Source: a virus (taxonomy: Duplodnaviria > Caudoviricetes). From it: a DNA stretch of 58,726 nucleotides. Position numbers and translations under genes: made by a program. Location of the stretch: IMG/VR virus record IMGVR_UViG_3300012942_000005, positions 1 through 58,726 of that record; one strand, written 5' to 3'. The notes below the pieces were generated by a model, which had not been told where the DNA came from, ran no database searches, and saw only the letters and a program-made list of their open reading frames with translations. This document shows, one piece after another, positions 124 to 29,184 of the stretch (position 1 is its first letter; every line of letters begins with the position of its first letter).

Positions 124-698
124 AGACGTTCTTCTTGCTCGCTGACTTCACGGTGAGCCTGTGCGGCAAGTTCGGCTTTGGAGTTCTCGACGCGTTGCTC
201 GATATGCTCCGCGAACGATCCCATGCCCACATTAGCAGGGCCGGGCGGATCGAGGGGCGCGTCTTGGTGCGGCTTGGCTCGCGGATCGACCTGGCGTAGC
301 TGCAACGATTCGATAAAGTCGGGATCGACGAAGTTGTTCGGCATTGTGGGGAGCGGCAATGGGGGTGCGGGGTCAGTGTGCTGGAGTACGCCGGTGAAGC
401 TGATGGGTTCTTTGGTGCAGCAAAGTTGGTCGCACATCGCTTGGAAAGGGTTCGAGGGCGTGTAGTTGAAAGCGTCGGTCGCGCGGTCGCGGTCGAGGTT
501 GAGGTTAGCGATGCTTTGAAACGGGGTCGGGGCGGGATTGACTTTGTCGATCAATGCGGACAGGTCGATTGGCTGTTGCTCCCTCACTTCTTGAACGGAT
601 TGGTTCATGCGGTTGATGTGGGAAAGGGCGGCGCAGAACTCGGCGGCAGTACTGCATTCGAGGGTGAAGCCGGCGGCGTCTGTGTAGATGATGGGCAT
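1..698 (-). CDS. Hypothetical protein, 5' part of a ~350-aa ORF that wraps the contig join and continues at 58603-58249
   Basis: Manual translation from ATG at 698 (MPIIYTDAAGFTLEC...QIRTLT) is open to base 1 and joins in frame to VEHNDPQQ... of ORF 58249..58605; missing from the ORF track. Confidence 0.75.
   Translation of the reverse strand, partial: MPIIYTDAAGFTLECSTAAEFCAALSHINRMNQSVQEVREQQPIDLSALIDKVNPAPTPFQSIANLNLDRDRATDAFNYTPSNPFQAMCDQLCCTKEPISFTGVLQHTDPAPPLPLPTMPNNFVDPDFIESLQLRQVDPRAKPHQDAPLDPPGPANVGMGSFAEHIEQRVENSKAELAAQAHREVSEQEERLAGRKRIDGHYYFRRAGSLEQENAKLREQNAYLTNQIRTLT
95..123. repeat. 29-bp exact inverted repeat, partner at 4942-4970
   Basis: aatggccgtcgatgcgctttcgcccagcg is the reverse complement of 4942-4970. 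Confidence 0.9.
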
Positions 699-1004
699 TT
701 GGGTTAGCTCCGGTCGAGCGGCAGCGCCGCGAGAGTAAGGCTGATGATGGACATTTGGTAGGTTCCAAAAATTGAGGTTTTAAAAATGGACCGAGTGAGA
801 TTGCTTGCGTAGGATAGCGCAGAAAGGCGGACGGAGGGGGATAGAATAGTATGATTCGAAAATTTATAGTTTTTCTGGAAAGGTAGCCCGGTACGGACAA
901 CAGGTACCCGGTCTGCGCAGCGCGGGGGTGGTGGGGTCCGCCCGCAGCGCAGGTCGCTGCGACCAGCCGGGCTGTGCCTCCCGGCCGCTGGGCTGTGAGA
1001 GCCG

Positions 1005-1172
1005 CTAGGCAGCGCGCGCCCGATCCTCAGCTTGCGCTGCCTGCCAGCCATCGCGCCACTCAAGCGAGCCTCGCTCACCCGACCCATAAGGGCTCTGCCA
1101 CTCCTCCGCGCCATCCAGATAGGCATTATAGCCGCTGGTATAGGCGCGCTGCGCTTCGCTCAATCTCTGCAT
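1005..1172 (-). CDS. Rmf/CrpP-fold small protein (ribosome modulation factor-like), 55 aa
   Basis: Manual translation MQRLSEAQRAYTSGYNAYLDGAEEWQSPYGSGERGSLEWRDGWQAAQAEDRARAA; GY.A...G...PY...W..GW pattern; GGAGA RBS; below the ORF-track cutoff. Confidence 0.7.
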   Translation of the reverse strand: MQRLSEAQRAYTSGYNAYLDGAEEWQSPYGSGERGSLEWRDGWQAAQAEDRARAA

Positions 1173-1220
1173 TTCATTCTCCCGATCCGGCTCGCGCCCA
1201 ATGCGCTAGCCCATGACTTA

Positions 1221-1249
1221 ATCATAGGCCAGCCCGCAAAGAAATGCAA
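1221..1249 (-). promoter_or_regulatory. sigma70-type early promoter for the Rmf-like gene
   Basis: TTGCAT-17-TATGAT on the minus strand with an AT-rich upstream tract. Confidence 0.65.
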
Positions 1250-1267
1250 GAAAAATCTTTCGCCTAA

Positions 1268-1504
1268 TCAAATGATGCCGATATCCAGCCCATTGAGCCA
1301 TTGGCAAAGCGCATCCAATTTGAATGCTTCGCATGCGATGCGCTCGCGGCTATCGCCATTCTCGCCATTAGCGTAATAATCTGCGCTCGCATCTTCTTCG
1401 CAAAGCGCATTCAATGCCGCGCATTCATCCGCTTGCAGCGGGCGCGCGAGGATGAGCAGCAAGCTATCATCCCGATAAGGCTCCGCTTCGATTTTGAATT
1501 GCAT
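1268..1504 (-). CDS. Early hypothetical protein (78 aa, acidic, no Val or Thr)
   Basis: AGGGG RBS before ATG at 1504 (MQFKIEAE...). Confidence 0.65.
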   Translation of the reverse strand: MQFKIEAEPYRDDSLLLILARPLQADECAALNALCEEDASADYYANGENGDSRERIACEAFKLDALCQWLNGLDIGII

Positions 1505-1517
1505 GATATTCCCCTGA

Positions 1518-1712
1518 TTAATTGGCCGGCAATTCGCTTTCGCGCATTGCGGCTTCGAATTCGGCCATAGAGCTATCGGCCGCGCAAGCAATCTCGCGGC
1601 CCTTGCTGCCCTTCGCGAAGCTCTTATAATGCTTCGCAAGCGCGGCGGCTGCATTCTTCGCGCGAATCTGATTGATATTCTGGCTTCGATAATAGATATA
1701 GAATTCTTTCAT
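1518..1712 (-). CDS. Early hypothetical protein (64 aa, no Val or Thr)
   Basis: AAGGGG RBS; tandem with the downstream ORF. Confidence 0.65.
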   Translation of the reverse strand: MKEFYIYYRSQNINQIRAKNAAAALAKHYKSFAKGSKGREIACAADSSMAEFEAAMRESELPAN

Positions 1713-1869
1713 TTCGCTTCCCCTTCTCTTGATTGATCCAATGGCTAAATAATAGAGGAAAAATCTTTCTTAGCTACGTAGGGTTTTCCCTAGTATTTCT
1801 AAGGGAAGAATCTTTCCTATAATGCTTCTCATGGCAGCGCGATTGGCGCGCGGCGAATAGGGGATTAAA

Positions 1870-2094
1870 ATGAGCGATATTCAGGAATATGAAATTCATC
1901 CCGAATATGCGAAAGCATTGCGCGCGATTATTAATGATCCGCGCCAGCCAAATGTCATTCGCATCGCGGCGATTAAAGAATATCGCTATCTGGCTCAGAA
2001 TATGCCGAAGGGCGCAAGCATCGAAGGCGATGACGAATATCTAGCTGACTTCGCGGGCGAATTCTTCGAAGAATTCCCTGCTCCGAACGATTGA
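1870..2094 (+). CDS. Early hypothetical protein with acidic C-terminus
   Basis: AGGGG RBS; TATAAT at ~1818. Confidence 0.65.
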   Translation: MSDIQEYEIHPEYAKALRAIINDPRQPNVIRIAAIKEYRYLAQNMPKGASIEGDDEYLADFAGEFFEEFPAPND

Positions 2095-2427
2095 TAGCCA
2101 CATTAGCCGCCGAGCAAGCCACGCCCGCCTCTGTGCGGGCTATCGGCGCTTCTGTTCCCATAGCAATTTCACTATCGCTTTCGAGCGACATGCGATAATG
2201 CCCATTATGGTAAATGAATCTTTCGATCCTTTCAATCGAAATTCTTTTCGAATCAATGGCTTAGGCGCGGCTCGCTGATAATGTAAGCATTATGAAATTT
2301 ATCTGCAAGTTAGCTGCAAGATATATCATGTATTAACGGACTACTTACGCTAGTACCTTCTGAGGATATGCCAAATTTTCCTATCATAGTTCTTTAGGGA
2401 AAATCTTCCGAATGCACGAAATAAATA

Positions 2428-2456
2428 TTGATGCGATGCGGGAATGCCTCTAGCAT
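2428..2456 (+). promoter_or_regulatory. sigma70-type early promoter
   Basis: TTGATG-17-TAGCAT upstream of 2509. Confidence 0.55.
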
Positions 2457-2508
2457 TAGTCCTAGGCGCTTCACTTTCGAACGCCTTTCAATCTGATAGG
2501 GGATTACT

Positions 2509-2847
2509 ATGGAAGTCGTAGCTTTCATTGCAGAAGACGGCCACAAGCTCTATGCCATCGGGCCTTTCAAAGATAAGGCGAGTGCGAATGCGGCTGCGGA
2601 TCGCGCAAGCGCCGGCCTCAATGCCAGCCCGGCCAGCATGCGCCATCGGCCCAGCGGGGCTATCACCGGGCGCGCATGGGCGATCTTCGATCTGCTCCAA
2701 GGCAAGCCGCGCGGCGAATTGATTGCGGAATGCGAGCGGCAAGGCATCAAGAAAGGGACCGCTGGCGCGCAGTACAGCCGCTGGGCGCGCGCTCGCAAGC
2801 CGGATAGCCGGGCGAACGGGGATTCGCGAAATGCACGCAGCAGCTAA
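2509..2847 (+). CDS. Early protein, paralog 1 of the GTxxxQ(Y/F)xxW putative HTH family
   Basis: TGRAWAIFD...GIKKGTAGAQYSRW; AGGGG RBS. Confidence 0.7.
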   Translation: MEVVAFIAEDGHKLYAIGPFKDKASANAAADRASAGLNASPASMRHRPSGAITGRAWAIFDLLQGKPRGELIAECERQGIKKGTAGAQYSRWARARKPDSRANGDSRNARSS

Positions 2848-3024
2848 TCAGGGCCAGGTTAGCTAATTCGGGGATCGGCCCAGCAAGAGGCAATACATTT
2901 CTTCAACATGAACAGATAAGCGATTAAAAAGTAGTATTGGAAAAGCGCGTTGCCCTGAATTAATATTCTTACATGGGCAACGCGCAATCCCGCGCCAAGG
3001 CCCTGAATCTTAAGGATAATCATC

Positions 3025-3612
3025 ATGGCCTTCCCAACGAACATCGCGGCAATCAACGCCGCCAATGCTTTCCTCAAAGCCCAAGGGCTCCCGAAGGAAC
3101 AGCGCGCTCAGTTCTTCAAAATCGAAAAGCTCGATGGCGAATGGCATAGCCGCCAGATCGCCCCCTTCCCCGCGCCTCGTGATCCGCTTTCCTGCCTGAT
3201 GATCGAGCGGGATGGCATCTATCCCTTCCCCAAGGCTGGCGAAGGCGCGGAAGCGGATGCCACGAAAGCTAGCGAGGAAGATTTTGCAGCGGCTCAGGCC
3301 GCAGCGGATCGCGCGGCGGATGCCCAGCAATCGGCCGGCATCAAGGGCGGCAAGGAATGGATTCGGATGAGCACGATCGAGCGCCCGACCAAAATGGTGC
3401 ATGTGATTGCGGATGAAATGGTGGCCGCAGCAGCCGCCGAAGGCCGCGAGCGCCCGAGCCGCAAGGAAATCCAAGATGAATGCGTGCGCCGGGGGATCGC
3501 CAGCGGCACCGCTCGTACCCAGTACCAGGCATGGAAAAAGGCGAACGACAATGCCGCCGCCAATGCCGCGAATGCCGCCGCTCTCAGCGCCGCTTTCTCC
3601 CGACGCATCTAG
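3025..3612 (+). CDS. Early protein, paralog 2 of the same family
   Basis: TKMVHVIAD...GIASGTARTQYQAW; AAGGA RBS. Confidence 0.75.
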   Translation: MAFPTNIAAINAANAFLKAQGLPKEQRAQFFKIEKLDGEWHSRQIAPFPAPRDPLSCLMIERDGIYPFPKAGEGAEADATKASEEDFAAAQAAADRAADAQQSAGIKGGKEWIRMSTIERPTKMVHVIADEMVAAAAAEGRERPSRKEIQDECVRRGIASGTARTQYQAWKKANDNAAANAANAAALSAAFSRRI

Positions 3613-3687
3613 TCTCTACATTTCGAACATCGTCTGTTCTCGCTATCGCTCGACTGGGGCGATAGCGACCATCTATCGGAGAAAATC

Positions 3688-3822
3688 ATGATCGCCATCG
3701 GCATTCTTCTTTTCGTCGGCTGCATCTTGTACCATCGTTGGATCACCGGCTGTTGGACTACTCGCCATCCCTACAATCGCAATAGCAGTTCTCTATCAAT
3801 CACCGAACGCGATAGCCACTGA
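3688..3822 (+). CDS. Small putative membrane protein (44 aa)
   Basis: GGAGA RBS; MIAIGILLFVGCILY hydrophobic start. Confidence 0.4.
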   Translation: MIAIGILLFVGCILYHRWITGCWTTRHPYNRNSSSLSITERDSH

Positions 3823-3958
3823 TCTGCCCTACAAGCTATCACCCGAGCATTCCCAATAGAGTATCTCACATGGCAAAATTCTTCCTCGCTGCTATACTTC
3901 TTTTCATAGCAGCACTCATCAAGCGCCCCGCAAGCAAGCGCGGCCATCACTAGCCACA

Positions 3959-4480
3959 TTATTCCGTCCAAGGCGCGGGTATCGCTTCAATATCGAAATA
4001 CCAAAGGATCGCTCGCAGCGCATCGCCCCAGCTATCGAACACCGCATACAGATAGCCAGCCGAACCGAGATACGCGCCGAACTCTTTTTGCTCGGCGCTT
4101 TCACCTTTGAGCTTCCCCGGGGCTTTCATTTCGATACAAAACCCGTGGTACCCTCTAGCTGGCCACATTATCGCAATGTCGCTCACCCCTGCTCGCTGGC
4201 CCTCCGCTTTCATGTTCGCTCCGGCAATCATCGCAGACCGCCTATCGCCTCCCCGCGTCCCACCATTCGGCACCGCGTGTACCCATTTCAGCGCATCCGC
4301 GATCCGCCACAATCTATCACGTTCCTCTCTCGCACCATCCGCCCCATACCCCGCGTCCGCAATCTCCGCATTGTTCGCCGCTTTCTCCACTGCAACCCGA
4401 TACGCAGCCAACGCAGCAAACAGCGCGACCTGCTGCGAATGCTCACTAGCACCTGCCAACTTTTCTGGGCTCATGTTCAT
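3959..4480 (-). CDS. VRR-NUC family nuclease (putative Holliday junction resolvase)
   Basis: HAVPNGG...EG.RAGVSD...IEMKAP...SAEQKEF motifs. Confidence 0.85.
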   Translation of the reverse strand: MNMSPEKLAGASEHSQQVALFAALAAYRVAVEKAANNAEIADAGYGADGAREERDRLWRIADALKWVHAVPNGGTRGGDRRSAMIAGANMKAEGQRAGVSDIAIMWPARGYHGFCIEMKAPGKLKGESAEQKEFGAYLGSAGYLYAVFDSWGDALRAILWYFDIEAIPAPWTE

Positions 4481-7599: not shown

Positions 7600-7631
7600 A
7601 GATTCATTGGATGACCAAACAGGGGAACGCA

Positions 7632-7892
7632 ATGAACATCAAGACGAACAAGATTCTCAACGATCTGGATGATGTAGCGATGGGTCGTGCATATCACGGG
7701 AACTCGCTGAACGCCGCACTGGCTACTTTCATCCTGTCCGATAGTGAGCGCGCGATGATTACTCGTTTTCGGAATGGGGTGGCGCATAACATGGACCACG
7801 TTGCGCTTCAAGATTTCGTACGCGAAACCCGCATGGACCACGTTGCGCTTCAAGATTTCGTACGCGAAACCCGCCGCAACGAACGCGATTAG
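7632..7892 (+). CDS. Early hypothetical protein with a duplicated 14-aa unit
   Basis: AGGGG RBS; MDHVALQDFVRETR twice. Confidence 0.65.
   Translation: MNIKTNKILNDLDDVAMGRAYHGNSLNAALATFILSDSERAMITRFRNGVAHNMDHVALQDFVRETRMDHVALQDFVRETRRNERD
7790..7873 (+). repeat. Perfect 42-bp tandem duplication
   Basis: catggaccacgttgcgcttcaagatttcgtacgcgaaacccg x2. Confidence 0.95.
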
Positions 7893-8221: not shown

Positions 8222-8383
8222 ATGAACGCCGAAGAAGCCGAGCGTTTTACCTTGTTGGCCGAGTTATTGGCGCAAGGTTACGCTGACGAAGCACAAGAAC
8301 ATGAGGACGAAGACCTCAAAATGACCGAGGCCGAACGCCTCGTTGACTTCACGTTGTACATACTCTCAAAGGTGAAAAAGTGA
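8222..8383 (+). CDS. Small acidic hypothetical protein
   Basis: MNAEEAERF...; GTGA overlap with the next gene. Confidence 0.5.
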   Translation: MNAEEAERFTLLAELLAQGYADEAQEHEDEDLKMTEAERLVDFTLYILSKVKK

Positions 8384-8889
8384 AACGTCCTTCCTCGTTG
8401 TTGCTCGCTTGCATTACCGGCGTCCTCGTATCCGCTGGCATCGCCCAATGCGCGCATGCGGAAACCGATGTACTGATATTCGGGCATTCCCAGCATTTTC
8501 GCAATAGCTGGGACCGGCCGTACAATCAGTGGAATTTCGGCGGTGGGCTGGAATACGCGCCGGATGCTTTCGCCCATCAATTCAGCACGCATGGGCGCGG
8601 CCAATGGCTCGTCGGCGCTTTCGCGCTGCGCGATTCGATCTATCAGACTGGCGGCGCGGCTTATATCGGCTACCGGTACACCTACGCGCTTTCGGATAAC
8701 TGGTCCGTGAACGCTACGATCCGGGCCGGCTGGATCAAGGATGCTGACTATCGCGGCCCGGCTGCGCTCCCGGCCATCGGCATCACGTACAAGCGCGTGA
8801 CGATCGAAGGCACATTCATTCCCCACATTAGCAGTGGGAACAAATTCACCGATCCGCTGGCGATTGTATGGGCGCGGATTCGATTCTGA
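8380..8889 (+). CDS. PagP-like outer-membrane beta-barrel (lipid A acyltransferase-like)
   Basis: Signal peptide ending AHA; H...YNQWNFGGG, ALRDS, GY.Y, LPAIG, TFIP, terminal WARIRF resembling PagP motifs. Confidence 0.7.
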   Translation: MKRPSSLLLACITGVLVSAGIAQCAHAETDVLIFGHSQHFRNSWDRPYNQWNFGGGLEYAPDAFAHQFSTHGRGQWLVGAFALRDSIYQTGGAAYIGYRYTYALSDNWSVNATIRAGWIKDADYRGPAALPAIGITYKRVTIEGTFIPHISSGNKFTDPLAIVWARIRF

Positions 8890-9140: not shown

Positions 9141-9869
9141 ATGAGCGAAGACCGAATCATCGACCGAATCAAGAAAATGCTGGCGCTGGCTAACGACCTC
9201 GCGGCCAGCGAAGGTGAGCGCGACAATGCGCTGCGGATGGCCTTCAACACGATGGCGAAGTACAACATCGACATGGCCACGGTCGAGAAGCACGGCAAGA
9301 AGGCCGAGGAAGCGCGGATCAATTTCCGCAACGACAGCTGGTCGTGGCTGTGGGCGAAGAAGGTTAACCAAATCGTCGGTCGCCTGTTCTTCTGCAAGTA
9401 TTACTACGGCGAGTCGATCAACGGCACGCAATGCCAACATCATTTCGTCGGCCGCGAATCAAACGCGATGACGGCGGCGGTGATGGCCGATTACGTGGTC
9501 AATTCGATCTTGAAAGAAGGCCGCAAGCTCGGCAAGCAAAATACGAGCCCGATCACGCGATCTTTCTGCGTCGGCGCAATGGAGACTCTGAGCATTCGCG
9601 TCAATCAGATCATCGCAGAGAAGGAAAAGGAATTGCAGGGCTCTCCCACGCCCGGAACGGCCCTTGTGCTGGCCTCATTCTATAAGAGCGAGCAGGACGA
9701 AAATTCTCGCTGGATTGCGGAGCATATCGGCAATCTGAAAACGAACAAAGGGCGCGCGAGCAAGGTGAACGCGGAAGCCTATGGCGCTGGGCGCGAATAT
9801 GGCGATAAGATCAATCTGAGCACGCAGGTGGCCGATGCAAGCGGCCCGACGCGCAAGCAAATTCGCTAA
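9141..9869 (+). CDS. DUF2786-family protein
   Basis: IIDRIKKMLALAND...SEGE..NA...A...MAKYNI N-terminus; AY.AG..YG..INL C-terminus. Confidence 0.8.
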   Translation: MSEDRIIDRIKKMLALANDLAASEGERDNALRMAFNTMAKYNIDMATVEKHGKKAEEARINFRNDSWSWLWAKKVNQIVGRLFFCKYYYGESINGTQCQHHFVGRESNAMTAAVMADYVVNSILKEGRKLGKQNTSPITRSFCVGAMETLSIRVNQIIAEKEKELQGSPTPGTALVLASFYKSEQDENSRWIAEHIGNLKTNKGRASKVNAEAYGAGREYGDKINLSTQVADASGPTRKQIR

Positions 9870-10785: not shown

Positions 10786-11350
10786 ACCGCTACCGATTAA
10801 CGAATTGCCTTTCCAAGGTGATTGCGAACTGAAGGAATGGACGATGCCGGATGGCACCGTCGCCATTCTAACCAAGGCCAAGTACTTCGACAGGATTCTG
10901 GCCGATTGGTATCAAAAGGCTACTGAATTCGCTGCGCTTAAAGCGGCCGAAGCGGAAGCGCGGGCGCGCGTCATCGAAATGGTCTACCCCGACGGGTACG
11001 CCAAGCCGGGTACCGACAAGTTCGGCATTCAATCCGGCTGGGTGCTTGAAATGGAGCGTCGAATCAACGTCAGTATCGACGAGGCGCAACTGGCCGGGAT
11101 TGCGGCCGAAGTCGCCAAACTCGAAGTCGATCCCGATACGGGCGAAATTCCCACATTCAGCGCGGCCGTCAAACCCAAGCCGACTTTCTCGGAGGCCGGG
11201 TACCGCGATCTGCGCGAGGACGTGAAAGCGCTGCTGAATGACGCCCTCACTTTCACTCCGGGTACCGCTGGCGTCAAAGTCATTCCGCCGAAAGCGAAAG
11301 CCACCGCGCGCGTCACGGATCAGAAGGCGAAAGCGAAGGGGGCGGCATGA
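10778..11350 (+). CDS. Hypothetical protein of the recombination module
   Basis: 190-aa ORF with overlapping start/stop with neighbours. Confidence 0.7.
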   Translation: MAKPLPINELPFQGDCELKEWTMPDGTVAILTKAKYFDRILADWYQKATEFAALKAAEAEARARVIEMVYPDGYAKPGTDKFGIQSGWVLEMERRINVSIDEAQLAGIAAEVAKLEVDPDTGEIPTFSAAVKPKPTFSEAGYRDLREDVKALLNDALTFTPGTAGVKVIPPKAKATARVTDQKAKAKGAA

Positions 11351-11996: not shown

Positions 11997-12947
11997 GTGA
12001 ACCTGCCGCCGCAACCGGGAACCGCCTCAAGCTCTACGCAAACTGCGCCCCCATCGTCAACTGGGACGACTATCCCGCCCTCGCAAACCTCGCCGGGCTT
12101 GCCACCGCAGGGAACGCCTATGGCGCAGACCTCGCCGGGATCGGCGGTACCGCCATCGTCGCTCAATCCCCACTCTTCGGGGCTATCTTCGGATCTGGTT
12201 TTCTCGACCGTTGAGCAGCAGTGCGGCGCGGAAGCGGGTGTAAAAGTTCTCGTCTATGGTGACGCGGGCATGGGTAAAACCGTGCTTTGCGCGACGCTTC
12301 CGATGCCGTTCGTGATCGTCAGTACCGAGAACGGCTTGCTGTCACTGTCTGTCAAAAACTTGACGCAGATTTTCATCGGGTTGGGTCTTGACGAAGAAAG
12401 CGCACGGTCGCGGGCGGAAATGGTGCGTCAGCAGAAAGTCATCATCGTGCGCAATGGGCTGCAATTGCGCAAGGCGCACGAATGGCTGGTTGCCCACATG
12501 AGCGAGTTTGCGTCTGTTGGTTGGGATTCGGCCTCGGATACGGCCGAAGTGATGCTTGAGGCCGCGAAGGCGGTTAAGGCGGATGGCCGTCAAGCCTATG
12601 GCGAAGTCGCTGACCTGATCGGCGGGTACTTCAAGAAGTTCCGCGACACTCTGCCCGGCAAGCACATTTGCGTCGTGGCCAAGAAGGGTTCGGTCAAGGA
12701 CGAAGTTACCGGCGGTATGAAATGGGGACCGGATTTTCCCGGTAAGCAATTGGGACCGGCAACGCCGTATTGGTTGGACGAAACGTTCCATATCAATGTG
12801 GCGACGAATCCCGAGAACAACACCCAGTATCGCTATCTGCAAACGCAGCCGAACGAGCAGTACGTCGCGAAGGATCGCAGCGGCTTGTTGCTCCAGTGGG
12901 AAAAGCCGGACCTCTCGTACATCATTGCGAAGATAACCGAACAATGA
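11997..12947 (+). CDS. Sak4-like AAA ATPase (phage recombinase)
   Basis: KVLVYGDAGMGKT Walker A, WDS Walker B, AKDRSG.L...EKPDL C-terminus; upstream of SSB; start uncertain. Confidence 0.85.
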   Translation: MNLPPQPGTASSSTQTAPPSSTGTTIPPSQTSPGLPPQGTPMAQTSPGSAVPPSSLNPHSSGLSSDLVFSTVEQQCGAEAGVKVLVYGDAGMGKTVLCATLPMPFVIVSTENGLLSLSVKNLTQIFIGLGLDEESARSRAEMVRQQKVIIVRNGLQLRKAHEWLVAHMSEFASVGWDSASDTAEVMLEAAKAVKADGRQAYGEVADLIGGYFKKFRDTLPGKHICVVAKKGSVKDEVTGGMKWGPDFPGKQLGPATPYWLDETFHINVATNPENNTQYRYLQTQPNEQYVAKDRSGLLLQWEKPDLSYIIAKITEQ

Positions 12948-13492
12948 AGCGCTGTTGCACCTGCAAACTAGATAAGCCGTTGGATCGTTTCGGTAAAGAT
13001 CGAAGCAAGAAAGACGGTTTGCAGGTGCAATGCAAAGATTGCAATAAAACGTATCGCGACGCGAATAAAGAACGAGCAGCACAGTATTCCAAAAGGTATC
13101 ACGCCGAGAATTTCGATTTGGTTTCTGCTCATAAGCGCAAACATTATGAAACGAATATTGAGTCGATCCGCGAGAATCGAAGGGCGTACTTCGCTGCGAA
13201 TCGATCTGCGTTTAACGCGCGCTTTGCTAAACGAAGGGCAGCACAGCGCCAAGCGATTCCCGGCTGGGCCGATCAAACGAAGATTGCCCTAGCGTACGAA
13301 GAAGCACAATTTGCGACGGAATTCTTTGGCGTACCTTTTCACGTCGATCATATAATTCCGATCAAAGGGGTTTTTCGCGGTAAGCATGTAGTCTGCGGTT
13401 TGCACTGGGAAGGAAACTTGCAAGTCCTTTCTAGCGCTGAAAATCTTCGAAAGAAGAACATTTGGTGGCCCGATGGGCCAATGTGTAATTAA
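12944..13492 (+). CDS. Free-standing HNH homing endonuclease
   Basis: CxxC...CKDC N-terminus; HVDHIIP...VCGLH...NLQVL...N..K.N. Confidence 0.9.
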   Translation: MKRCCTCKLDKPLDRFGKDRSKKDGLQVQCKDCNKTYRDANKERAAQYSKRYHAENFDLVSAHKRKHYETNIESIRENRRAYFAANRSAFNARFAKRRAAQRQAIPGWADQTKIALAYEEAQFATEFFGVPFHVDHIIPIKGVFRGKHVVCGLHWEGNLQVLSSAENLRKKNIWWPDGPMCN

Positions 13493-14236: not shown

Positions 14237-14752
14237 ATGTTCAATCGGTTCTGGAGTTTGGTCGCGTCTTTCGCGATGAGCGACCGAGGTTTCCGCTGGT
14301 TGCATAAGCGCGCGGATAAGTCGCACTATACGCATATCCTCCACATGGGTAAGCTGTATATGTGGCGCGGCTGGGTCATCAAACGCTGGCGAAACTTCCC
14401 CGCAGTCCGGCTGCACCGTATCATGGGGCCGGACCTGTCGCGCGACATGCACTCGCACCCGTTCAATTTTCGCACGATCATCCTGCGCGGCTGGTACATT
14501 CAGGAGTATCCCGGAGAGCACTGGCCCGGCCAGAAGAACTCGATCAATGTGGTCAAAATGCTGCCCGGCATGCAATCGATTTGCAAATACGGCGACTTCC
14601 ACCGCATTACGCAAGTCAGTCAAGGCGGCTGTTGGACTTTGTTCATCATGTGGGGTGGCAAGCGCCACGATTGGGGTTTCATGACCAAAAACGGTTTTGT
14701 GCACGCGCGTGATTACAAGGACAAGAACGGCCACGGGGTCGCGAAGGTATGA
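14237..14752 (+). CDS. Cupin-fold protein
   Basis: LH....D....HSHPF...IILRGWY.E...FHRI...WTLF...WGF. Confidence 0.7.
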   Translation: MFNRFWSLVASFAMSDRGFRWLHKRADKSHYTHILHMGKLYMWRGWVIKRWRNFPAVRLHRIMGPDLSRDMHSHPFNFRTIILRGWYIQEYPGEHWPGQKNSINVVKMLPGMQSICKYGDFHRITQVSQGGCWTLFIMWGGKRHDWGFMTKNGFVHARDYKDKNGHGVAKV

Positions 14753-18160: not shown

Positions 18161-18850
18161 ATGCATATCGTGGTGGATAAGACGAATCTAAAAATGGTTG
18201 CGGCTGCGGCTAGCCTTAAATGGGCGAACCTGATCGCCTATGTCGATTTTGGCGAAGTCGCGACCTGTGTGGTGGATTCAGAGGACGGCCGCACGTGGAC
18301 GGTTCTCGATAAGGCGCAAATGGCCACGCTCTATACGAACATGAGCGGCCAGCCATCGCCCGAATATAAGGACGCCATCGAACAGCTGCGCGCCTATTCG
18401 TCCAGATGGCCGCTTTATCCGAAAACTGAACGCGACCTCGAACCTGTGGCCGAAGCCATTTATCAGGCGGAAATGGACGACCCTGAAATTCAATTGCATG
18501 CGGAAGAAACCGCAACAGCATTGAAACAGGAAGCCTTTCAGGCGACCGTGAGAGCTTGCGAGAATGCGCGCCCAGCCCAATCCTCGGAGCACCGCGCGGA
18601 AGCGCAGCAGCAAGCCGCCACGAAGCCGAAAGCGCCTCCTAGCGGCGAAGGCCAGCCCCGGCCGCGCCAAGGGATCACAAAAAAGATTTGGGAATACTGC
18701 GATATCGAACTCGCAGTGACCGGCCAGATGGGTGACCACAAGGCTTTCCGCCGCCGCGTGGTGGATCGAGTCAAGGCCGAGCACCCGGAAGCAAACGAAG
18801 GGACCATTGCTACACAGTTTGGGCATTGGCGTCGTGAACGGGGGCTGTGA
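18161..18850 (+). CDS. Paralog 3 of the GTxxxQ(Y/F)xxW family
   Basis: GITKKIWEYCD...EGTIATQFGHWRR; AGGAG RBS. Confidence 0.75.
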   Translation: MHIVVDKTNLKMVAAAASLKWANLIAYVDFGEVATCVVDSEDGRTWTVLDKAQMATLYTNMSGQPSPEYKDAIEQLRAYSSRWPLYPKTERDLEPVAEAIYQAEMDDPEIQLHAEETATALKQEAFQATVRACENARPAQSSEHRAEAQQQAATKPKAPPSGEGQPRPRQGITKKIWEYCDIELAVTGQMGDHKAFRRRVVDRVKAEHPEANEGTIATQFGHWRRERGL

Positions 18851-20133: not shown

Positions 20134-20712
20134 ATGACCGAAAGCACCAAAGCCCCGGAAACGGCAGACAAGGCCGCAGTGAAAGCGGCGAAGGACGCCG
20201 AGAAGGCGAAGAAGGCACAAGAAAAGGCCGACGCGAAAGCGAAAGCAGATGCCGAAAAGGCACAAGCGAAGCAAGCGGCCGAAGCCGCGAAGCTGTCGAA
20301 GGACACGAAGAACGGCATCACGCGACCGGCGCGTGGCGTCACGCTGCTGGTATGGACCACCGCCGATGCAATGTCGGCCGCGAAGGAAGCTCCCGCCGAA
20401 CGCGCCGACGTGGTCAAGGCGCTCGACGGCAAGGTCGAACAGGGCACCGTGCACACGCAGTTCGGCCGGTGGCGCAAGTATTATGGTCTGACCGAGACCA
20501 AGGAACAGCGCCAGACGCGTCTGGCCGACGCGAAGGCTGCGACCGCCGCGAAGAAAGCCGAGGAAAAGGCCAAGAAAGACGCGGAAAAGGCCGAAGCTAA
20601 GGTCAAGGCAGATGCCGAAAAGGCCGAGAAAGCCAAGGCCAAGGCCGACGCGAAGGCTGCGGCAGATGCGGAAAAGGCTCGCAAAGCCGAAGCCGCGAAG
20701 CAAGACGCTTAG
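20134..20712 (+). CDS. Lys/Ala-rich histone H1-like protein with central paralog-4 domain
   Basis: KA/DA/EK repeats flanking GVTLLVWTTAD...QGTVHTQFGRWRK. Confidence 0.8.
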   Translation: MTESTKAPETADKAAVKAAKDAEKAKKAQEKADAKAKADAEKAQAKQAAEAAKLSKDTKNGITRPARGVTLLVWTTADAMSAAKEAPAERADVVKALDGKVEQGTVHTQFGRWRKYYGLTETKEQRQTRLADAKAATAAKKAEEKAKKDAEKAEAKVKADAEKAEKAKAKADAKAAADAEKARKAEAAKQDA

Positions 20713-21410: not shown

Positions 21411-22163
21411 ATGCAACAGATTAACTTCCAGCGTCCCGAAAAGGCGACGACTCAGGGCAATGGCGAAATCCTCCTAATCCACTCTGTGTTTTTTACAATT
21501 CAAGGCGAGGGTCCGAATGTCGGCAAACCTGCTGTTTTTGTGCGCCTTGGCGGCTGCAATCTTCAATGTCCGGGTTGCGACACTGACTACACGCATGGAG
21601 TCGCAAACGAACACATCGAGTCCATCGTTACTCGAATTGGAATGGCTTTTGGTGATTACAAGGGCGAACGCTTGGTAGTTATCACGGGCGGCGAGCCGTT
21701 CAGGCAAGAACTCGAACGGTTTATCAACAGTTTGTTTCGGCTGGGATACGTGGTGCAGATTGAAACGAATGGTACGCTCGGTTTTCGCGAGCCGGAAGAA
21801 CTGACGTTCTTTGCAAGAAGATTTCTTCAAATCGTGGTCAGCCCTAAAGCGGGCAAAGTTGCCGAAAGCCTCTATCCGTGGATCACGGCGTACAAGTATG
21901 TGCTGGATATCGTGCATATCGATCCGAAAGACGGATTACCGACTTCGGCGCTAGGTATGCCGGCCGCACCTGCTCGGCCGCATGCTGGCTTTTTTGGCGA
22001 CGTGTACGTGCAACCCGCTGACGAGCCGAAAGAGGAAGAATTTGAAGACGTCGGTGCAATCAATCGCGCGAACGACGATAACCTAGAAGCTTGCATTCAA
22101 GTTGCCAAGAAGTTCGGTTATCGGGTCTGCATTCAAACTCATAAGATTCTTGGCGTCGCATAA
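21411..22163 (+). CDS. queE: 7-carboxy-7-deazaguanine synthase (radical SAM)
   Basis: TIQGEG, FVRLGGCNLQCPGCDT, TGGEP, IETNGT, VSPK, QTHK. Confidence 0.95.
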   Translation: MQQINFQRPEKATTQGNGEILLIHSVFFTIQGEGPNVGKPAVFVRLGGCNLQCPGCDTDYTHGVANEHIESIVTRIGMAFGDYKGERLVVITGGEPFRQELERFINSLFRLGYVVQIETNGTLGFREPEELTFFARRFLQIVVSPKAGKVAESLYPWITAYKYVLDIVHIDPKDGLPTSALGMPAAPARPHAGFFGDVYVQPADEPKEEEFEDVGAINRANDDNLEACIQVAKKFGYRVCIQTHKILGVA

Positions 22164-22191
22164 ATTGTAGTTCAAACTCTGGAGTTTCAAA

Positions 22192-22923
22192 ATGAGCAAA
22201 GCGGTAATCGTATTTTCGGGCGGTCAGGATTCAACGACCGTCCTCGGCATGGCTCGTCACATGGGCTATGATTGCTACGCCATCGGCTTCGACTACGGCC
22301 AGAAGCACGCGGTCGAGTTGCAGCAAGCGCGGAAGATTGCGGCCAAGCTCGGCGTACCGTACCATGTGGTCAATATCCGCGAATTCGGCAAGCTCGTCGG
22401 CGCGGGATCGGCCCTACTGAACAACGGGCAAGAAGTGACCGACGCTTCGCGCATCGTGAAGGACGTACCGGCTTCGTTCGTGCCGAATCGCAATGCAGTC
22501 ATGCTCACGATCGCGCACGGCTACGCGCAGATGATCGAGGCGGATACGGTCTGGACTGGCGTCTGTCAGACGGACTACAGCGGCTACCCGGATTGCCGGC
22601 TGGAGTTTATTCAGAAACTGAATGTCGCCTTGAATCTCGGGTACAAGACGCAAATCTCGATTCTGACGCCGCTGATGCATTGCACGAAGGGCGAAACGTT
22701 CAAGTTGGCAGAAGAAGCGGGCGTGCTCGACTTGGTGATCGAGGAGTCGCATACGTGCTATAACGGCATCCGACAAGTCGGCCCGACGATGCCTGACCGT
22801 TGGGAATGGGGCCACGGCTGCGGCGAGTGCCCGGCTTGCCTACTGCGCGCGAAGGGCTGGGAAGACTACAAGGCAATGGAACATATCGCGGAAGGCCGGG
22901 TCACTGGGAAGGCGGCGCAATAA
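22192..22923 (+). CDS. queC: 7-cyano-7-deazaguanine (preQ0) synthase
   Basis: SGGQDS, DYGQKH, FVPNRN, GYPDCR, TCY...CGECPAC. Confidence 0.96.
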   Translation: MSKAVIVFSGGQDSTTVLGMARHMGYDCYAIGFDYGQKHAVELQQARKIAAKLGVPYHVVNIREFGKLVGAGSALLNNGQEVTDASRIVKDVPASFVPNRNAVMLTIAHGYAQMIEADTVWTGVCQTDYSGYPDCRLEFIQKLNVALNLGYKTQISILTPLMHCTKGETFKLAEEAGVLDLVIEESHTCYNGIRQVGPTMPDRWEWGHGCGECPACLLRAKGWEDYKAMEHIAEGRVTGKAAQ

Positions 22924-23387
22924 TGTACCTCTCGACAAAATGTTATGGGCATGAAGAAGGACTTTCATGCGCCTTTCGCCAGTGGCGGGCGAATCATTCC
23001 CATTGCCAGCTGTTGCACGGGTACGCGCTCTCGTTCAAGTTCGTTTTTGCCGCAGACAAGCGCGACGAACGCGGCTGGGTGATGGACTTCGGCGGTCTCA
23101 AAGGGCTCAAGCAACAACTCAAGGATACCTTTGACCACAAAGTTGCTATCGCGGCCGACGATCCATATCGGGCAACGTTTATGTCGATGAACGACGTAGG
23201 AATCATGGACGTGTTGATTTTCGAAGGGGGTGTCGGTATCGAAAATTTCGCACGGGAAGCGTGGTACCTTGCGACCGTTTTCCTGAACGAAAACTACCCC
23301 GAGCACGTCAAGTCGCGCGGGCTCCGCGTAGTATCCTGCGAATGCGCCGAGCATGGCGCTAACTCTGCAATTTACGTCAACGATTAA
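22923..23387 (+). CDS. queD: 6-carboxy-5,6,7,8-tetrahydropterin synthase
   Basis: HCQLLHGY, VMDFGGLK, FDH, EN.A; start at ATG 22923 (TAATG overlap). Confidence 0.93.
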   Translation: MYLSTKCYGHEEGLSCAFRQWRANHSHCQLLHGYALSFKFVFAADKRDERGWVMDFGGLKGLKQQLKDTFDHKVAIAADDPYRATFMSMNDVGIMDVLIFEGGVGIENFAREAWYLATVFLNENYPEHVKSRGLRVVSCECAEHGANSAIYVND

Positions 23388-23394
23388 AGAGAAC

Positions 23395-24231
23395 ATGGGC
23401 GATCTTAAACAAGAAGTGCAAACCACCATTTTCGATGATGGTGACGAAGGCAAGCCGATGCAAAGGAGTATAACGGCCTCTCACAATTGTGCCAAGTGCG
23501 GCACCGGCTATGCTGGACCAGAGTGCAAAGGTAGCCCCGGTCTGTTTATTTCGGGCGTGGGTCATTTGAGCGATGCGGAAATTGCGGAGTTGATAGGTGC
23601 GAGGCCGAACTCGGTCGTTAGAGTTGGGCCGGTGTCGCAATTGGAGCCTATCAGCAAATCGCTGAGCGAAGGAGTCATCAGCGATTTGCTGGCGCATGTC
23701 ATCGGCGAGGACGTGAATCGCGAAGGGCTGCGCGAGACCCCGGCGCGGGTGGTGAAAGCATGGAAAGCATGGACTGCGGGCTATGCGCAAGACCCGGCCG
23801 AAGTGCTGAAAGTGTTCGAAGATGGTGGCGAAGCTACGCACGGCCAGTGGATCATCGTCAAGGATATCCCCATCTACAGTCACTGTGAACACCACCTCGC
23901 GCCGTTCTTCGGCACGGCCACGATCGGCTATGTGTCGAGTGGCCGGGTCGTCGGGCTTTCGAAGCTCGCGCGGCTCGCTGACGTGTATGCCAAGCGGCTG
24001 CAAGTGCAGGAGCGCCTTACGAATCAGATCGCAGACGCGCTGATTCAGGTACTTGATGCCCCGGTTGCCGCGGTGGCGCTGAATTGTCGCCACATGTGTA
24101 TGGAATCGCGCGGCATCCAGCGCACGGGCAGCAGCACGTCGACTTTCGCGTTCAAATGCGGCCCGATGGTGACCGTCGACGGGCTTAAAGAGTACCGCAT
24201 CGAATTCTTCGAACAGCTGTCGGTGCTCTGA
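23395..24231 (+). CDS. folE: GTP cyclohydrolase I with N-terminal extension
   Basis: GED..REGL.ETPARV, SHCEHHLAPFFG, GLSKLAR, RLQVQERLT, HMCMESRG. Confidence 0.95.
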   Translation: MGDLKQEVQTTIFDDGDEGKPMQRSITASHNCAKCGTGYAGPECKGSPGLFISGVGHLSDAEIAELIGARPNSVVRVGPVSQLEPISKSLSEGVISDLLAHVIGEDVNREGLRETPARVVKAWKAWTAGYAQDPAEVLKVFEDGGEATHGQWIIVKDIPIYSHCEHHLAPFFGTATIGYVSSGRVVGLSKLARLADVYAKRLQVQERLTNQIADALIQVLDAPVAAVALNCRHMCMESRGIQRTGSSTSTFAFKCGPMVTVDGLKEYRIEFFEQLSVL

Positions 24232-24500
24232 TGGAGAAGCGGCCCCCGAAACTGGTTGTTGCTCCGCGATTGGAGCATGCGGAGTACTTCGCGCGCGAGG
24301 TGATGCTGTGGGGCCGCTCCGAATGGAAGTATGTTAGCAGCCCCGAAAAGTTGCAGGGCATGCAATATGTTTTCATCTTCAAGGTGGTTGCGCCTCGCCA
24401 TCGATTCGGCTCGCATGGGGATGAGGAAAAGTACGAACAGATTCTGCAAATCCTCGCATCGCGCCACAACGTTCGCATCAACATTTACGTCCTGAAATGA
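24231..24500 (+). CDS. Hypothetical protein inside the deazaguanine operon
   Basis: TGATG and ATGA overlaps with folE and dpdA. Confidence 0.65.
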   Translation: MEKRPPKLVVAPRLEHAEYFAREVMLWGRSEWKYVSSPEKLQGMQYVFIFKVVAPRHRFGSHGDEEKYEQILQILASRHNVRINIYVLK

Positions 24501-25414
24501 ATCTCTATATCGCCGGTCTGTACACTGCGAACTTCCAGTATGGCGGTCCGGGCTGGAGCAATCTAGATGACCGGGAGAAGCAAGCCCATGCAAGCGTTGA
24601 GAACAAACTCGAGTCTTACCACTATATCGGGAAAGGACGGTATGCCTTACGGATTCGTGAGAACGGGGACCGAGTATTTTTGGACAGCGGAGCCTTTTCC
24701 GCGTTCTCGTTGGGGGTCGAAGTCGATCTGCCCGAATATTGCCGCTGGATACAAGAAAATCTCGACATTGTACGGGTCGAGGACGGCGATCTTATGGCTT
24801 CCGTACTTGATGGAATTGGCGATCCACTCAAGACGTATCGCAACCAACTCGCGATGGAACAATTGGGAGTTCGGCCTCTCCCTTGTTTTCACTATGGCGA
24901 GGACGAGCGGTATCTGGAACATTACATCGCAAATTACAGGTATATCACAATCGGCGGCATGGTGCCGATTTCGACGCCCCAATTATTCCATTGGCTTGAT
25001 CGAATCTGGAACAAGTACCTCATTGATGGGTCCGGTCGGGCTCGCATTAAGGTACATGGATTCGGACTGACTTCGCTACCGCTGATGCAGGAATATCCGT
25101 GGTATAGCGTTGACTCCTCATCATGGGTGCAAATCGGCGCGCACGGAAACATCATCATGGACGGTAAGACGCTCGCGTTTTCGAGCCAATCGCCTAGCCG
25201 AAAGAATGCGAATCAGCACGTCGACTCGCTCCCGGAGACTATGCGGTCTGCGATTGAGCAAAAGCTGGTCAGCATGGGATATGATCCTATCAGGCTTCGC
25301 GATATCCAATATAGTCGCTGGGCCTTTAACGCTGAGCAGTTCGCCAACATGGGCCGCGAACTCAAAGCGCGAGGAATTACGTTCGATAACCAGCAACCGG
25401 AGCTTTTCTCATGA
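24497..25414 (+). CDS. dpdA: DNA 7-deazaguanine transglycosylase (TGT fold)
   Basis: FLDSGAFSA, P.FH.GE, GG.V, VHGFG.T, SVDSSSW; follows que genes. Confidence 0.88.
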   Translation: MNLYIAGLYTANFQYGGPGWSNLDDREKQAHASVENKLESYHYIGKGRYALRIRENGDRVFLDSGAFSAFSLGVEVDLPEYCRWIQENLDIVRVEDGDLMASVLDGIGDPLKTYRNQLAMEQLGVRPLPCFHYGEDERYLEHYIANYRYITIGGMVPISTPQLFHWLDRIWNKYLIDGSGRARIKVHGFGLTSLPLMQEYPWYSVDSSSWVQIGAHGNIIMDGKTLAFSSQSPSRKNANQHVDSLPETMRSAIEQKLVSMGYDPIRLRDIQYSRWAFNAEQFANMGRELKARGITFDNQQPELFS

Positions 25415-27155: not shown

Positions 27156-29184
27156 CGAAGCCGGGTTGTTCTGGAATGACGTAAAGCCGCCGAAAGTCAA
27201 GCGGGCGGATAAGATCAAGCGCACGCCGCCTGATCCGGTTTGGCTATCGCCTAACTATTTACCCAATCTGGCCGAGGCGCTGCATTGGGAACCGGAGTGT
27301 ATGAGCGATGGAGAACTTCTAGATGCCAAACTGTCAGGCGACCGGCTGGTATGGGATACCGAAAGCTACCCCAATTATTGGTCGGCGGGTTTCACTAACC
27401 TTCGAACAGGTAAAAGCCTTATATTCGAATGCGCACCCGAATTCGGTTTGCACCTTGATAAACAGAAGCTCGATTGGGTGCTTCGAAACTTCACTCTTAT
27501 CGACTTCAATGGCGAGTCGTATGATCGCCATACAACGGCGATTGCAGTCAAGCCCGGAACTACTTCTGACCACATGTATGGAGCAACGGTCGAGATAATC
27601 GAACGCGGCGTGCCGGGTTGGATGGTTGTGCGCTCGTATGGCGCGCGCAAAGTGCAGATGGATCATATCGACTTGATTCAACTGACGCCGCTGGCTCCGT
27701 CGCTCAAAATTATGGCCGGTCGGCTCGGCTCGCCGCTGATGATGGACTTGCCGTTCAAGCCGGGCACATATTTGTCATGGGAACAAACGCGCATCCTGCG
27801 CTGGTACATGTTCAATGATAATCGCAACACGCAGTTGGTCTATGAGGCGCATCTAGCGAACATCAAACTCCGCGAGGAATTCGGGCCGAAGTACGGCATC
27901 GACTTGCGGAGCCGCAGCGATGCGCAGATGGCCGAGGCGATTTTCAGAGCCGAAGTGCGCAAGCGGACCGGGCGCAATCCCGAGGTGATCCCCTATGAAG
28001 GTGCGTTTAAATTTCGTATGCCGGATTGGGTACAATTCAAAACCCCGATTTTGCAGCAATTGAAACAAACTATCATCGAATCCGATTTCATAGTCGGGGA
28101 GAATGGATATGTTCAAGAACCAGCCGCTTTCAAAGACCTTAAAATCGCCATCGGAAGCGGACTCTATACTTTCGGCATTGGCGGACTGCACTCTAACGAG
28201 AAACGAGCAGCGCATTGCACACATGATCGAACTGGCGTGCATCGATGGATTCTCCGCGATCACGATGTGGCTTCATACTACCCCAAGCTCATCCTCGAAA
28301 GTGGTTATTACCCGCCCGCTATCGGCCCGATCTTTGTATCGATCTACAGCGATATCATCGAAAGACGATTGAAAGAGAAGGCCATCGATCCCAAAGGCGT
28401 TTGGGCGCTGGGCCTGAAAATTGTCGGTAACGGAACGTTCGGCAAGACCTCCGATCCGTTCTCCATTCTTTACTACCCGCCACTGATGGTACAAACCACG
28501 ATCAGCGGGCAGCTAGCGCTGTTCATGATGATCGAACGTGCGCATCTGGCAGGGATGGAAGTGACGAATGCGAACACTGATGGCGTCGTTATTAAAACCA
28601 CGATCGAGCGCGATGACGAATTGAAGGCGATCGTTGCAGATTGGGAAGCGGCGACAGGTTTGCAGATGGAAACCAAGGACTATGTGGCTACTTTCTCGCG
28701 CGACGTGAACAGCTACATTGCTATCGACACGAAGTATAAGGCAAAGCGTAAAGGCTGGTATAAGGAGAATGGTTGCAATGGTCGCCCTGATAACGAGCAA
28801 ATCAAGAAGAACCCGACCGCCGAAATCGTCGGAGACGCACTTGAAGCATTCTTTACAAAAGGCAAACCAGTTGCTGAAACGCTCAGAGAGTGTCGTGATA
28901 TCAACAAATTCGTCACTGTCAAACAGGCACAGGGCGGCGGCGCTTTTGTTGAACCTGGTTCCGATCCAGTCTATCTCGGTAAAGCCGTCCGCTTCTACAA
29001 GAGCGCGGGCAGCACGGGGGAAATCATCACAGTCACTAAAGGCCATCTTGTCGGCGGTAGCGAAGGATGCCGCCCAATCATGCGCTACGATGGAACCTTT
29101 CCCGCCGATGTAGATATGGAGTTTTATGAGTCAATGGTGAATGAGCACCTTGAACTGCTCGGATTTAACGAGTTGGTATCCTAG
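27145..29184 (+). CDS. Family-B DNA polymerase with 3'-5' exonuclease
   Basis: Exo WDTE, FNG..YD, Y..ND; polymerase motifs DVASYYP, KIVGNGTFGK, NTDG. Confidence 0.9.
   Translation: MRFDEAGLFWNDVKPPKVKRADKIKRTPPDPVWLSPNYLPNLAEALHWEPECMSDGELLDAKLSGDRLVWDTESYPNYWSAGFTNLRTGKSLIFECAPEFGLHLDKQKLDWVLRNFTLIDFNGESYDRHTTAIAVKPGTTSDHMYGATVEIIERGVPGWMVVRSYGARKVQMDHIDLIQLTPLAPSLKIMAGRLGSPLMMDLPFKPGTYLSWEQTRILRWYMFNDNRNTQLVYEAHLANIKLREEFGPKYGIDLRSRSDAQMAEAIFRAEVRKRTGRNPEVIPYEGAFKFRMPDWVQFKTPILQQLKQTIIESDFIVGENGYVQEPAAFKDLKIAIGSGLYTFGIGGLHSNEKRAAHCTHDRTGVHRWILRDHDVASYYPKLILESGYYPPAIGPIFVSIYSDIIERRLKEKAIDPKGVWALGLKIVGNGTFGKTSDPFSILYYPPLMVQTTISGQLALFMMIERAHLAGMEVTNANTDGVVIKTTIERDDELKAIVADWEAATGLQMETKDYVATFSRDVNSYIAIDTKYKAKRKGWYKENGCNGRPDNEQIKKNPTAEIVGDALEAFFTKGKPVAETLRECRDINKFVTVKQAQGGGAFVEPGSDPVYLGKAVRFYKSAGSTGEIITVTKGHLVGGSEGCRPIMRYDGTFPADVDMEFYESMVNEHLELLGFNELVS

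Follow-up and report, generated by a model that had tools for sequence, protein, structure and literature searches.

A zone nearly free of GT/AC dinucleotides in the putative early genes of a dpdA-carrying podovirus, and its possible link to DNA modification

Avoidance of restriction sites in leading DNA is known from the T7 early region, the first-step-transfer DNA of T5 and the leading regions of plasmids. Motif-specific modification of phage DNA by the guanine transglycosylase DpdA has been published as well: in phage iggy the enzyme targets GA, with ∼97% of GA sites modified (PMC10484667), and in phage CAjan it targets GA and GGC (PMC7544227). Here we analyze a stretch of viral DNA of 58,726 nucleotides (nt), IMG/VR record IMGVR_UViG_3300012942_000005 (the window, at its full length), which carries dpdA and in which a group of small, putatively early genes almost lacks the dinucleotide GT on either strand (GT/AC below). 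This zone is a real, extreme and conserved feature.

A preliminary description, made from the sequence, had reported near-absence of GT/AC in the earliest genes, and our counts bear this out. Positions 1141-1775 contain two such steps, an AC at 1216 and a GT at 1373, while 78.3 are expected from the local base composition and 62.6 from the genome-wide GT/AC rate; the loss thus remains significant after composition correction (Poisson P 3e-31). The interval 1375-1775, said to be free of GT/AC, indeed has none against 49.4 expected. The weaker depletion described as far as ∼3.4 kb is also present, as 1141-3450 has 64 steps against 288 expected, and these comprise 27 GT and 37 AC, in agreement with the proposed avoidance on either strand. 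The bounds can be refined, with the extreme loss extending from ∼1100 to 2030 and a fainter gradient continuing to ∼7 kb. In particular, the extreme desert (1100-2032) has eight steps in 932 nt, four of them in or beside one palindrome, and is followed by a shoulder (2033-3450) with an observed/expected ratio of ∼0.3-0.4. The longest GT/AC-free gap of the genome, 403 nt (1373-1776), compares with a maximum of 117 nt in 100 composition-matched shuffles. A contig from a second assembler (run X1, possibly from the same source sample) is identical to the window over 200-4200, so that an assembly artefact is unlikely.

Other steps are present in the desert at about the expected numbers (observed/expected 87/80 for GA, 72/78 for TG and 75/80 for AG), and GT/AC is the sole missing step among those containing G or T. 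When ten zones from different genomes were pooled, all eight NGT and GTN flanking contexts were lowered to 0.31-0.56, with GTT, at 0.42, similar to the others, while gapped G-N(1-8)-T was normal (0.93-1.04). The uniform loss across contexts together with normal gapped pairs indicates a dinucleotide signal rather than a set of longer sites.

Selection against GT/AC acts on DNA, as the loss is seen at synonymous codons, at the junctions of codons and between genes. Two-way synonymous choices in the first three open reading frames (ORFs) produce GT/AC in 4 of 74 cases, compared to 946 of 2433 in 19 other genes, and codon junctions carry none in 216 codons, compared to 648 in 8827; it is this avoidance at synonymous choices and junctions that demonstrates DNA-level selection. 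Val and Thr together occur once in the same 216 codons and 1042 times in the 8827 codons of the other genes. With the protein held fixed, the six most GT/AC-depleted genes all lie in 1005-3612 (z -2.9 to -5.0; genes for this protein-preserving null were called by a simple purpose-written script).

The zone contains three small ORFs, two of them acidic, one palindrome, and two copies of a gene for a helix-turn-helix (HTH)-like protein. The first two ORFs, on the minus strand, had been described as free of Val and Thr, and their translations agree with this. One, at 1268-1504, encodes 78 amino acids (aa), of which 16 are D or E and 6 are K or R, and has one GT/AC where 17.5 are expected for its protein; no family was found for it, and an Atlas search gave no usable match. 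The other, of 64 aa (1518-1712), has none against 10.7 expected; its single homologue, at 63% identity, has two Val and one Thr. On the plus strand follow a 74-aa acidic ORF (1870-2094; 15 D or E, one Val, no Thr; 4 against 14), a 112-aa protein with a three-helix HTH-like domain, which is a copy of a dpdA-associated family (2509-2847; 11 against 24.9), and a 195-aa protein of the BcepGomr gp65 family with a C-terminal HTH-like domain (3025-3612; 21 against 40.1). In other genomes with a zone, the ORFs near the corresponding junction look unrelated, yet again lack Val and Thr. Examples are ORFs of 116 aa in genome G001, 98 aa in G002, and 98 and 102 aa in locus L081; locus L084 also has Val/Thr-free ORFs unrelated to those of the window.

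Judged by gene content, the window is a complete podovirus genome of the LUZ24/phiM5 type, with homologous capsid and portal genes, no long tail genes, and a late block opposite to the early block. Its capsid protein is 36-40% identical to those of LUZ24-like phages and phiM5. The ends of the window overlap by 123 nt; the overlap lies inside a reading frame and resembles a circular-assembly overlap, so position 1 is probably arbitrary. Late genes run leftward from ∼700 across the join. Between them and the early block, at 880-935 on the plus strand, is a conserved junction motif of paired GGTACCCG-like words followed by a G-rich tract. It was found in all seven real rows aligned (the window, G001, L081, L082, G045, G046 and G003) and in G002, and the drop in GT/AC starts no more than 500 nt past it in 6/6 podoviral genomes. 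The motif is probably a terminase or terminal-repeat site, that is, a genome end. Phage DNA that is packaged last is ejected first, and the LUZ24 record opens with a 184-bp terminal repeat, sigma-70 promoters and small early genes. From the gene layout and the junction motif, the zone is likely to be the first-entering and earliest-expressed DNA. In G046 (L097, 7182-8973) and G045 (L098), the genes from terL to the junction motif, among them a probable small terminase gene, are oriented opposite to terL, unlike in the window.

The palindrome, TAGGG-N4-CCCTA at 1779-1792, lies in the divergent early promoter region and with its flanks forms the only GT/AC cluster of the desert. It recurs in the zones of five of the six podoviral genomes (window 1772-1800; G001 14410; G002 60487; G045 30952; G046 33698 and 33789) and is absent from G003. 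It is a probable operator and could serve as a sensor site of the modification state. Sigma-70-like promoter matches, which are consensus matches only, are located at 1795-1871 on the plus strand (TATAAT at 1818, TAAAAT at 1866), and their best -35 hexamers lack AC.

The window has the same modification gene set as iggy and CAjan. The genes queE, queC, queD and folE, for synthesis of 7-cyano-7-deazaguanine (preQ0), occupy 21411-24231 on the plus strand (PHROGs, Pfam and NCBIfam matches), and are adjoined by a full-length dpdA at 24497-25414, also on the plus strand (305 aa; phrog_887, E 2e-74). The encoded DpdA is 54% identical to that of iggy and 50% to that of CAjan. QueC is a single domain of 243 aa, and the scan of the window ORFs revealed neither a separate QueF nor an ArcS, which suggests preQ0 as the modification. 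No second DNA-modifying enzyme was recognised among the 74 window ORFs scanned.

In a search for relatives, the first 8 kb of the window matched only three DNA records, at 2-3% coverage, and scanning viral contigs with the primase gave no match. With a profile made from the 195-aa early protein, 43 loci were retrieved, including the window's own contig and some duplicates. Nine of them had a 600-nt GT/AC minimum of at most 0.14 (L063 and its duplicate L083, the window's L078, L081, L084, L091, L092, L097 and L098); many others had minima of 0.24-0.53, and loci matched only via a distant paralogue mostly had no dip. BcepGomr and vB_Ade_ART, whose virion genes are unrelated to those of the window, have milder zones at the matching place. 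In vB_Ade_ART, the gene with the strongest synonymous-site loss of GT encodes the primase (∼72.0-74.3 kb of the record; 154 against 216, z -6.7), hence the zone of this phage extends into replication genes.

The zone follows the phylogeny of DpdA. The DpdA tree has 40 rows, from complete or nearly complete records of 28 of 60 IMG/VR DpdA loci chosen by length and completeness, from named phages, and from records found via the capsid and the early gene. The zone is present in 9 of the 10 rows of one clade (support 97/90), which includes podo- and siphoviruses; eight of these have a log10 P from -6.1 to -19.7, and the ninth, G003, has -4.8. No zone is seen in the other 30 rows (-1.7 to -5.6), and two records obtained later, which the tree does not include, have values of -2.1 and -2.3. 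The trait maps as one change on the DpdA tree. Grouping of the GT-zone genomes was rejected on the QueC tree (approximately unbiased test, p-AU 3.5e-6; 37 rows, with MiCath, 9g and NP1 left out as long branches) and on the polymerase tree (p-AU 0.039; 24 rows), both topology tests using a simpler model. GT-zone phages span Burkholderia and Achromobacter and 42-56% GC.

A comparison with phages lacking dpdA, suggested in the preliminary description, gave the expected outcome, as the zone is absent from 13/13 such phages (-1.6 to -4.8), which were chosen by related polymerase or capsid and include no close relative; three are Achromobacter phages. RHph_N3_2, with a 43-residue dpdA match (E 2e-4), was counted as lacking the gene. 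Some other candidates were set aside. G046 has a zone and no dpdA match, but its record is 86% complete and ends ∼10 kb before the dpdA position of G045. G048-G050 are fragments (58-64% complete; terminase identity 56-57%) and show, within these fragmentary records, neither a dpdA match nor any dip over 10 kb upstream of terL. We also did not use clade-specific DpdA residues as an argument on specificity, as the three separating columns (I5, F164, H216) are too few.

What the avoided step means can be judged from iggy. Of ten step classes, GA/TC has the deepest local drop in this phage, located at the genome end (60051-60550; 9 against 48.7), where AG is normal. Since iggy is depleted of its published target at the genome end, the avoided step can be the written one. 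Among 46 sequences, iggy also has the lowest intergenic GA ratio (0.70). A scan of GA:AG ratios was not used as support, because it is confounded by CAG/CTG-rich low-complexity stretches. In the window, the footprint points to GT and not GA. Moreover, GT-containing 6-mer palindromes are spared relative to GT-free ones outside the zones of the GT clade, with a median log2 contrast of +0.12 compared to -0.19 where dpdA is absent (p 0.0014) and -0.09 in the remaining dpdA phages (p 0.0055). In this test, four motifs were tried, G046 was included, and related genomes were counted singly, so the samples are not independent. The median for GTAC outside zones is 0.91 in the GT clade and 0.73 in phages without dpdA. 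This sparing fits GT sites being protected. In addition, G in GT context makes up 17.6% of all G, close to the modification levels of 16.5% and about 25% in PMC10484667, which we counted in favor of a GT target. Taken together, we consider it fairly probable that the DpdA of the window writes preQ0 at 5'-GT-3'. The preliminary description had considered that DpdA modifies G in this context while the earliest genes must be readable by host RNA polymerase. The part concerning DpdA gains indirect support from the DpdA tree, from the 13 phages without dpdA and from the avoidance by iggy of its measured motif.

Two side observations concern other words. AGCT, a GT-free site that would be unprotected, is scarcer outside the zone in the GT clade, with a median of 0.75 where other dpdA phages have 0.99 (p 0.001, in a test of 16 words). 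In phage 9g, the longest GG/CC-free gap (28079-28197) adjoins the pac site at 28243 (PMC5567051), and 500-nt counts show no clear loss of GG.

The HTH-like family co-occurs with dpdA. Its profile matches one to four copies in 10/10 GT-zone genomes, in 34 of the 35 other records, a group made up of 33 dpdA carriers and two fragments (the dpdA-bearing G034 is the exception), and in 0 of 13 phages without dpdA. One paralogue matched 43 public phage records, of which 32 are confirmed dpdA carriers and 11 are unchecked; none of those checked lacks dpdA. Most sampled dpdA phages have three neighboring copies, just upstream of the que genes in the cases examined; in iggy, CAjan and 9g alike, a second copy is located at a distance from the que cluster. 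In the GT clade, one or two copies lie in or beside the zone. Two window paralogues lie outside it, both on the plus strand: one at 18161-18850 with ordinary Val and Thr use (14 V, 15 T), and one at 20134-20712, just upstream of queE, with ordinary GT/AC use. The 195-aa protein has homologues in all nine other GT-zone genomes. Its HTH-like domain is predicted as three helices (predicted local distance difference test, pLDDT, about 95). Fold and sequence searches for a link to sigma-70 region 4, to HTH activators or to another named family gave none: Foldseek had no match at E≤0.001, the best VIA Z of 6.7 was within background, and a PDB sequence search had no match under E 0.5. Proteins of the family may be readers of modified DNA.

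Why a phage would keep its own target out of such genes may lie in how modified DNA is read. With 7-ethynyl- or 7-vinyl-deazaguanine templates, transcription by the Escherichia coli and Bacillus subtilis polymerases is almost completely lost, whereas unsubstituted 7-deazaguanine is tolerated; the effect is mainly on initiation, with neither pausing nor shorter transcripts on the modified templates tested, and sigma Arg584 contacts -31'G (PMC4838386). In the template strand of TTGACA, T follows this G, making it a GT site, and the 7-cyano group would resemble 7-ethynyl in shape. The share of promoter-like sites that have the consensus TTGAC is 9/174 in the GT clade and 34/100 in phages without dpdA; it is 5/54 in iggy and CAjan and 39/535 in other dpdA phages. 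Genome-wide anchoring of GT loss to promoters was considered for the GT clade and rejected (0.94 at 186 -10-like sites outside zones). Host RNA polymerase as the reader, the other part of the option above, fits the promoters and leaves the purge of coding sequences unexplained, since no elongation defect was seen (PMC4838386). Enzymes attacking deazaguanine DNA can explain that purge. Indeed, Dag1 degrades preQ0 DNA (10.1101/2025.10.29.685425) and GrwAB restricts Queuovirinae (PMC12137116), and in both cases dpdA mutants escape. Gradients over 5-10 kb, as found in the window, G001 and G002, are consistent with DNA being exposed in the order in which it enters. The sharp 1-kb zone of G045 and G046, which surrounds a promoter region and an HTH-like gene, is consistent with one unit that has to act first.

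This leads to an account in which DpdA would put preQ0 in place of G in the context 5'-GT-3'. By avoiding GT on both strands, the unit that probably enters first would stay unmodified until its products are made. Its GT-free promoters would allow the host sigma-70 RNA polymerase to initiate, and its GT-free genes would, most likely, be hidden from host enzymes attacking deazaguanine DNA. The small acidic and HTH-like products might then open or shield the modified remainder of the genome. The depletion itself, where it starts, its recurrence in relatives and its tracking of DpdA are observed, while the GT target, the order of entry, the readers and the part played by the products are inferred. 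For the account in full, a GT-writing DpdA plus a modification-free start-up unit with promoters kept for the polymerase and genes spared from defence, we see the chances as evenly balanced. A generalization is possible but doubtful: dpdA phages may carry a start-up cassette, in which the HTH-like reader gene, as a rule clustered next to the que-dpdA operon, has a copy at the first-entering end; this copy, free of the target of the resident DpdA, would be expressed first and unlock or shield the genome, so that the missing dinucleotide would give the DpdA specificity (here a new one, GT).

Several explanations compete with this account. GT could be the DpdA target with host transcription as the sole reader, initiation and, in vivo, early elongation being hindered by modified G until the HTH-like protein, as an activator, enables RNA polymerase to work on the modified genome. 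The zone of G045 and G046, essentially a promoter region and an HTH-like gene, speaks for it, as do the scarcity of TTGAC across dpdA phages generally and the non-coding depletion of iggy with its low intergenic GA ratio; in the record of Vibrio phage CA8, a homologue next to queE carries the depositors' annotation 'transcriptional activator', which is a label and not a test. Still, the purge of coding sequences, including the loss of Val and Thr, stays unexplained if transcripts are neither paused nor shortened (PMC4838386), and the HTH-like fold has no firm match to a sigma domain or an activator; we give this explanation a minor share of the probability. It is fairly unlikely that the cause is another factor inherited with the DpdA clade, either an HTH-like protein that binds GT/AC in silencing or coating, or an unrecognised enzyme acting on A, C or T. 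A dinucleotide footprint is silent on which base is read, and four other genes (3025-3612, 20134-20712, 9141-9869 and 10844-11350) rank the GT genomes as well as dpdA does. Against it, the scanned ORFs include no recognised second modifying enzyme, the HTH-like family is not confined to GT-zone genomes, being present in 32 of the 33 dpdA phages without a zone, and iggy demonstrates that a DpdA target can leave such a footprint. A neutral cause, such as local mutation bias, low complexity or amino acid composition, could be suspected, as HTH-like proteins are Ala-rich and MiCath, NP1 and iggy have weak GT dips on or beside HTH-like genes. It is highly improbable given that the protein-preserving null leaves z of -3.5 to -5.0 in five adjacent genes, that TG/CA, the step read in reverse, has a normal frequency (1 against 58 in a single 500-nt window), and that unrelated Val/Thr-free ORFs recur in G001, G002, L081 and L084.

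First-entering phage DNA is known to avoid restriction sites, and AC/GT occurs in Type I half-sites. The preliminary description had accordingly offered two more options: GT as the one context that cannot be modified and is thus unprotected, or escape from host sites such as those of Type I enzymes or GAAC/GTTC phosphorothioation. The probable leading-end position of the zone and the 5-10 kb gradients agree with both. The sparing of GT palindromes outside the zone argues against both. So do the even loss in all contexts, the lack of a gapped signal, and word frequencies outside the zone, where GAAC/GTTC is not avoided (GAAC 1.01-1.18 in ten genomes, AAC 0.99-1.16, GTAC 0.91 compared to 0.73). 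In addition, the trait crosses Burkholderia and Achromobacter and a wide GC range, and is missing from the three dpdA-less Achromobacter phages. Avoidance of unprotected or host-recognised GT is therefore improbable.

A number of observations weigh against the account that we prefer. VpKK5 lies inside the DpdA clade on a long branch and has no zone (-3.2), the support for excluding it being 0. As the four genes named above rank the GT genomes as cleanly as dpdA, the link to DpdA is not a unique one, and the records checked included no complete close relative that lacks dpdA. The iggy control consists of a single genome, and its depletion is non-coding (z of the best gene -2.6); the top class of CAjan is also GA, but weak (-4.8) and within the control range. 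Phages without dpdA reach GA scores of -5.2 to -6.4, their GA-poor sites being two CAG/CTG-rich low-complexity stretches and two GC-rich patches (-5.5, -5.7) that are seemingly non-coding. The palindrome test recovers the motif of iggy unclearly (GA 0.01). No published measurement of the modified base or context was found for any clade member, nor did a literature search list restriction or modification data for BcepGomr. Many promoter-like sites are chance matches, five genomes supply 29 of the 34 control TTGAC sites, and G001 and G003 each retain three. Intergenic DNA beyond the zone is not GT-poor (0.88-1.13 of coding). Finally, the G045/G046 zone of ∼1 kb has a sharp far edge and no long gradient, and the lysis genes of BcepGomr lie between the zone and the record end.

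If our account is true, a phage pays for a protective modification with a modification-free start-up region, and selection removes two amino acids from whole proteins. It would predict a third DpdA specificity, GT, with BcepGomr and vB_Ade_ART as cultured relatives, and would make DpdA targets guessable from sequence alone. The HTH-like family would be a candidate for how host RNA polymerase reads deazaguanine DNA, and for how host glycosylases and GmrSD-like nucleases fail to destroy it.

Some features elsewhere were also recorded. ORF 7611-7892 of the window has a ∼42-nt tandem duplication at about 7780-7870, giving a repeated 14-residue peptide. Profile matches in the window suggest PagP-like (8380-8889), endonuclease VII-like (12770-13492), cysteine-dioxygenase-like (14237-14752) and GDSL esterase-like (47595-48986) proteins. 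In L070, at ∼12500-13100, GA and GC steps are nearly absent (0.05 and 0.02) and GT/AC is in excess, probably due to a simple repeat.

Neither a GT-specific DpdA nor a phage that removes the target of its own modification from its first genes turned up in a literature search that covered few of the subscription journals. The window resembles iggy and CAjan in its set of folE, queD, queE, queC and dpdA. Unlike in these, the depleted step is GT, which the accessible texts do not report as a main target (PMC10484667, PMC7544227), and the purge covers whole genes and alters amino acids, while that of iggy is non-coding; moreover, iggy and CAjan are Queuovirinae siphoviruses, and the window has a virion of the LUZ24/phiM5-type podoviruses. 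The latter, with short direct terminal repeats and a capsid akin to that of the window, have neither dpdA nor a zone; in LUZ24, 9 of 13 promoter-like sites have the consensus TTGAC. The Dag1 and Dag2 glycosylases and GrwAB give a cost to carrying the modification (10.1101/2025.10.29.685425; PMC12137116); escape from them is by loss of the modification, as far as these texts go, unlike in the window with its putative locally unmodified zone. As in leading DNA that avoids restriction sites, the purge is confined to DNA that probably enters and is expressed first and that has small acidic ORFs. Unlike there, the window avoids a dinucleotide in all contexts rather than sites of 4-8 bp, and the trait tracks a phage enzyme and not the host, with GT sites spared elsewhere in the genome.

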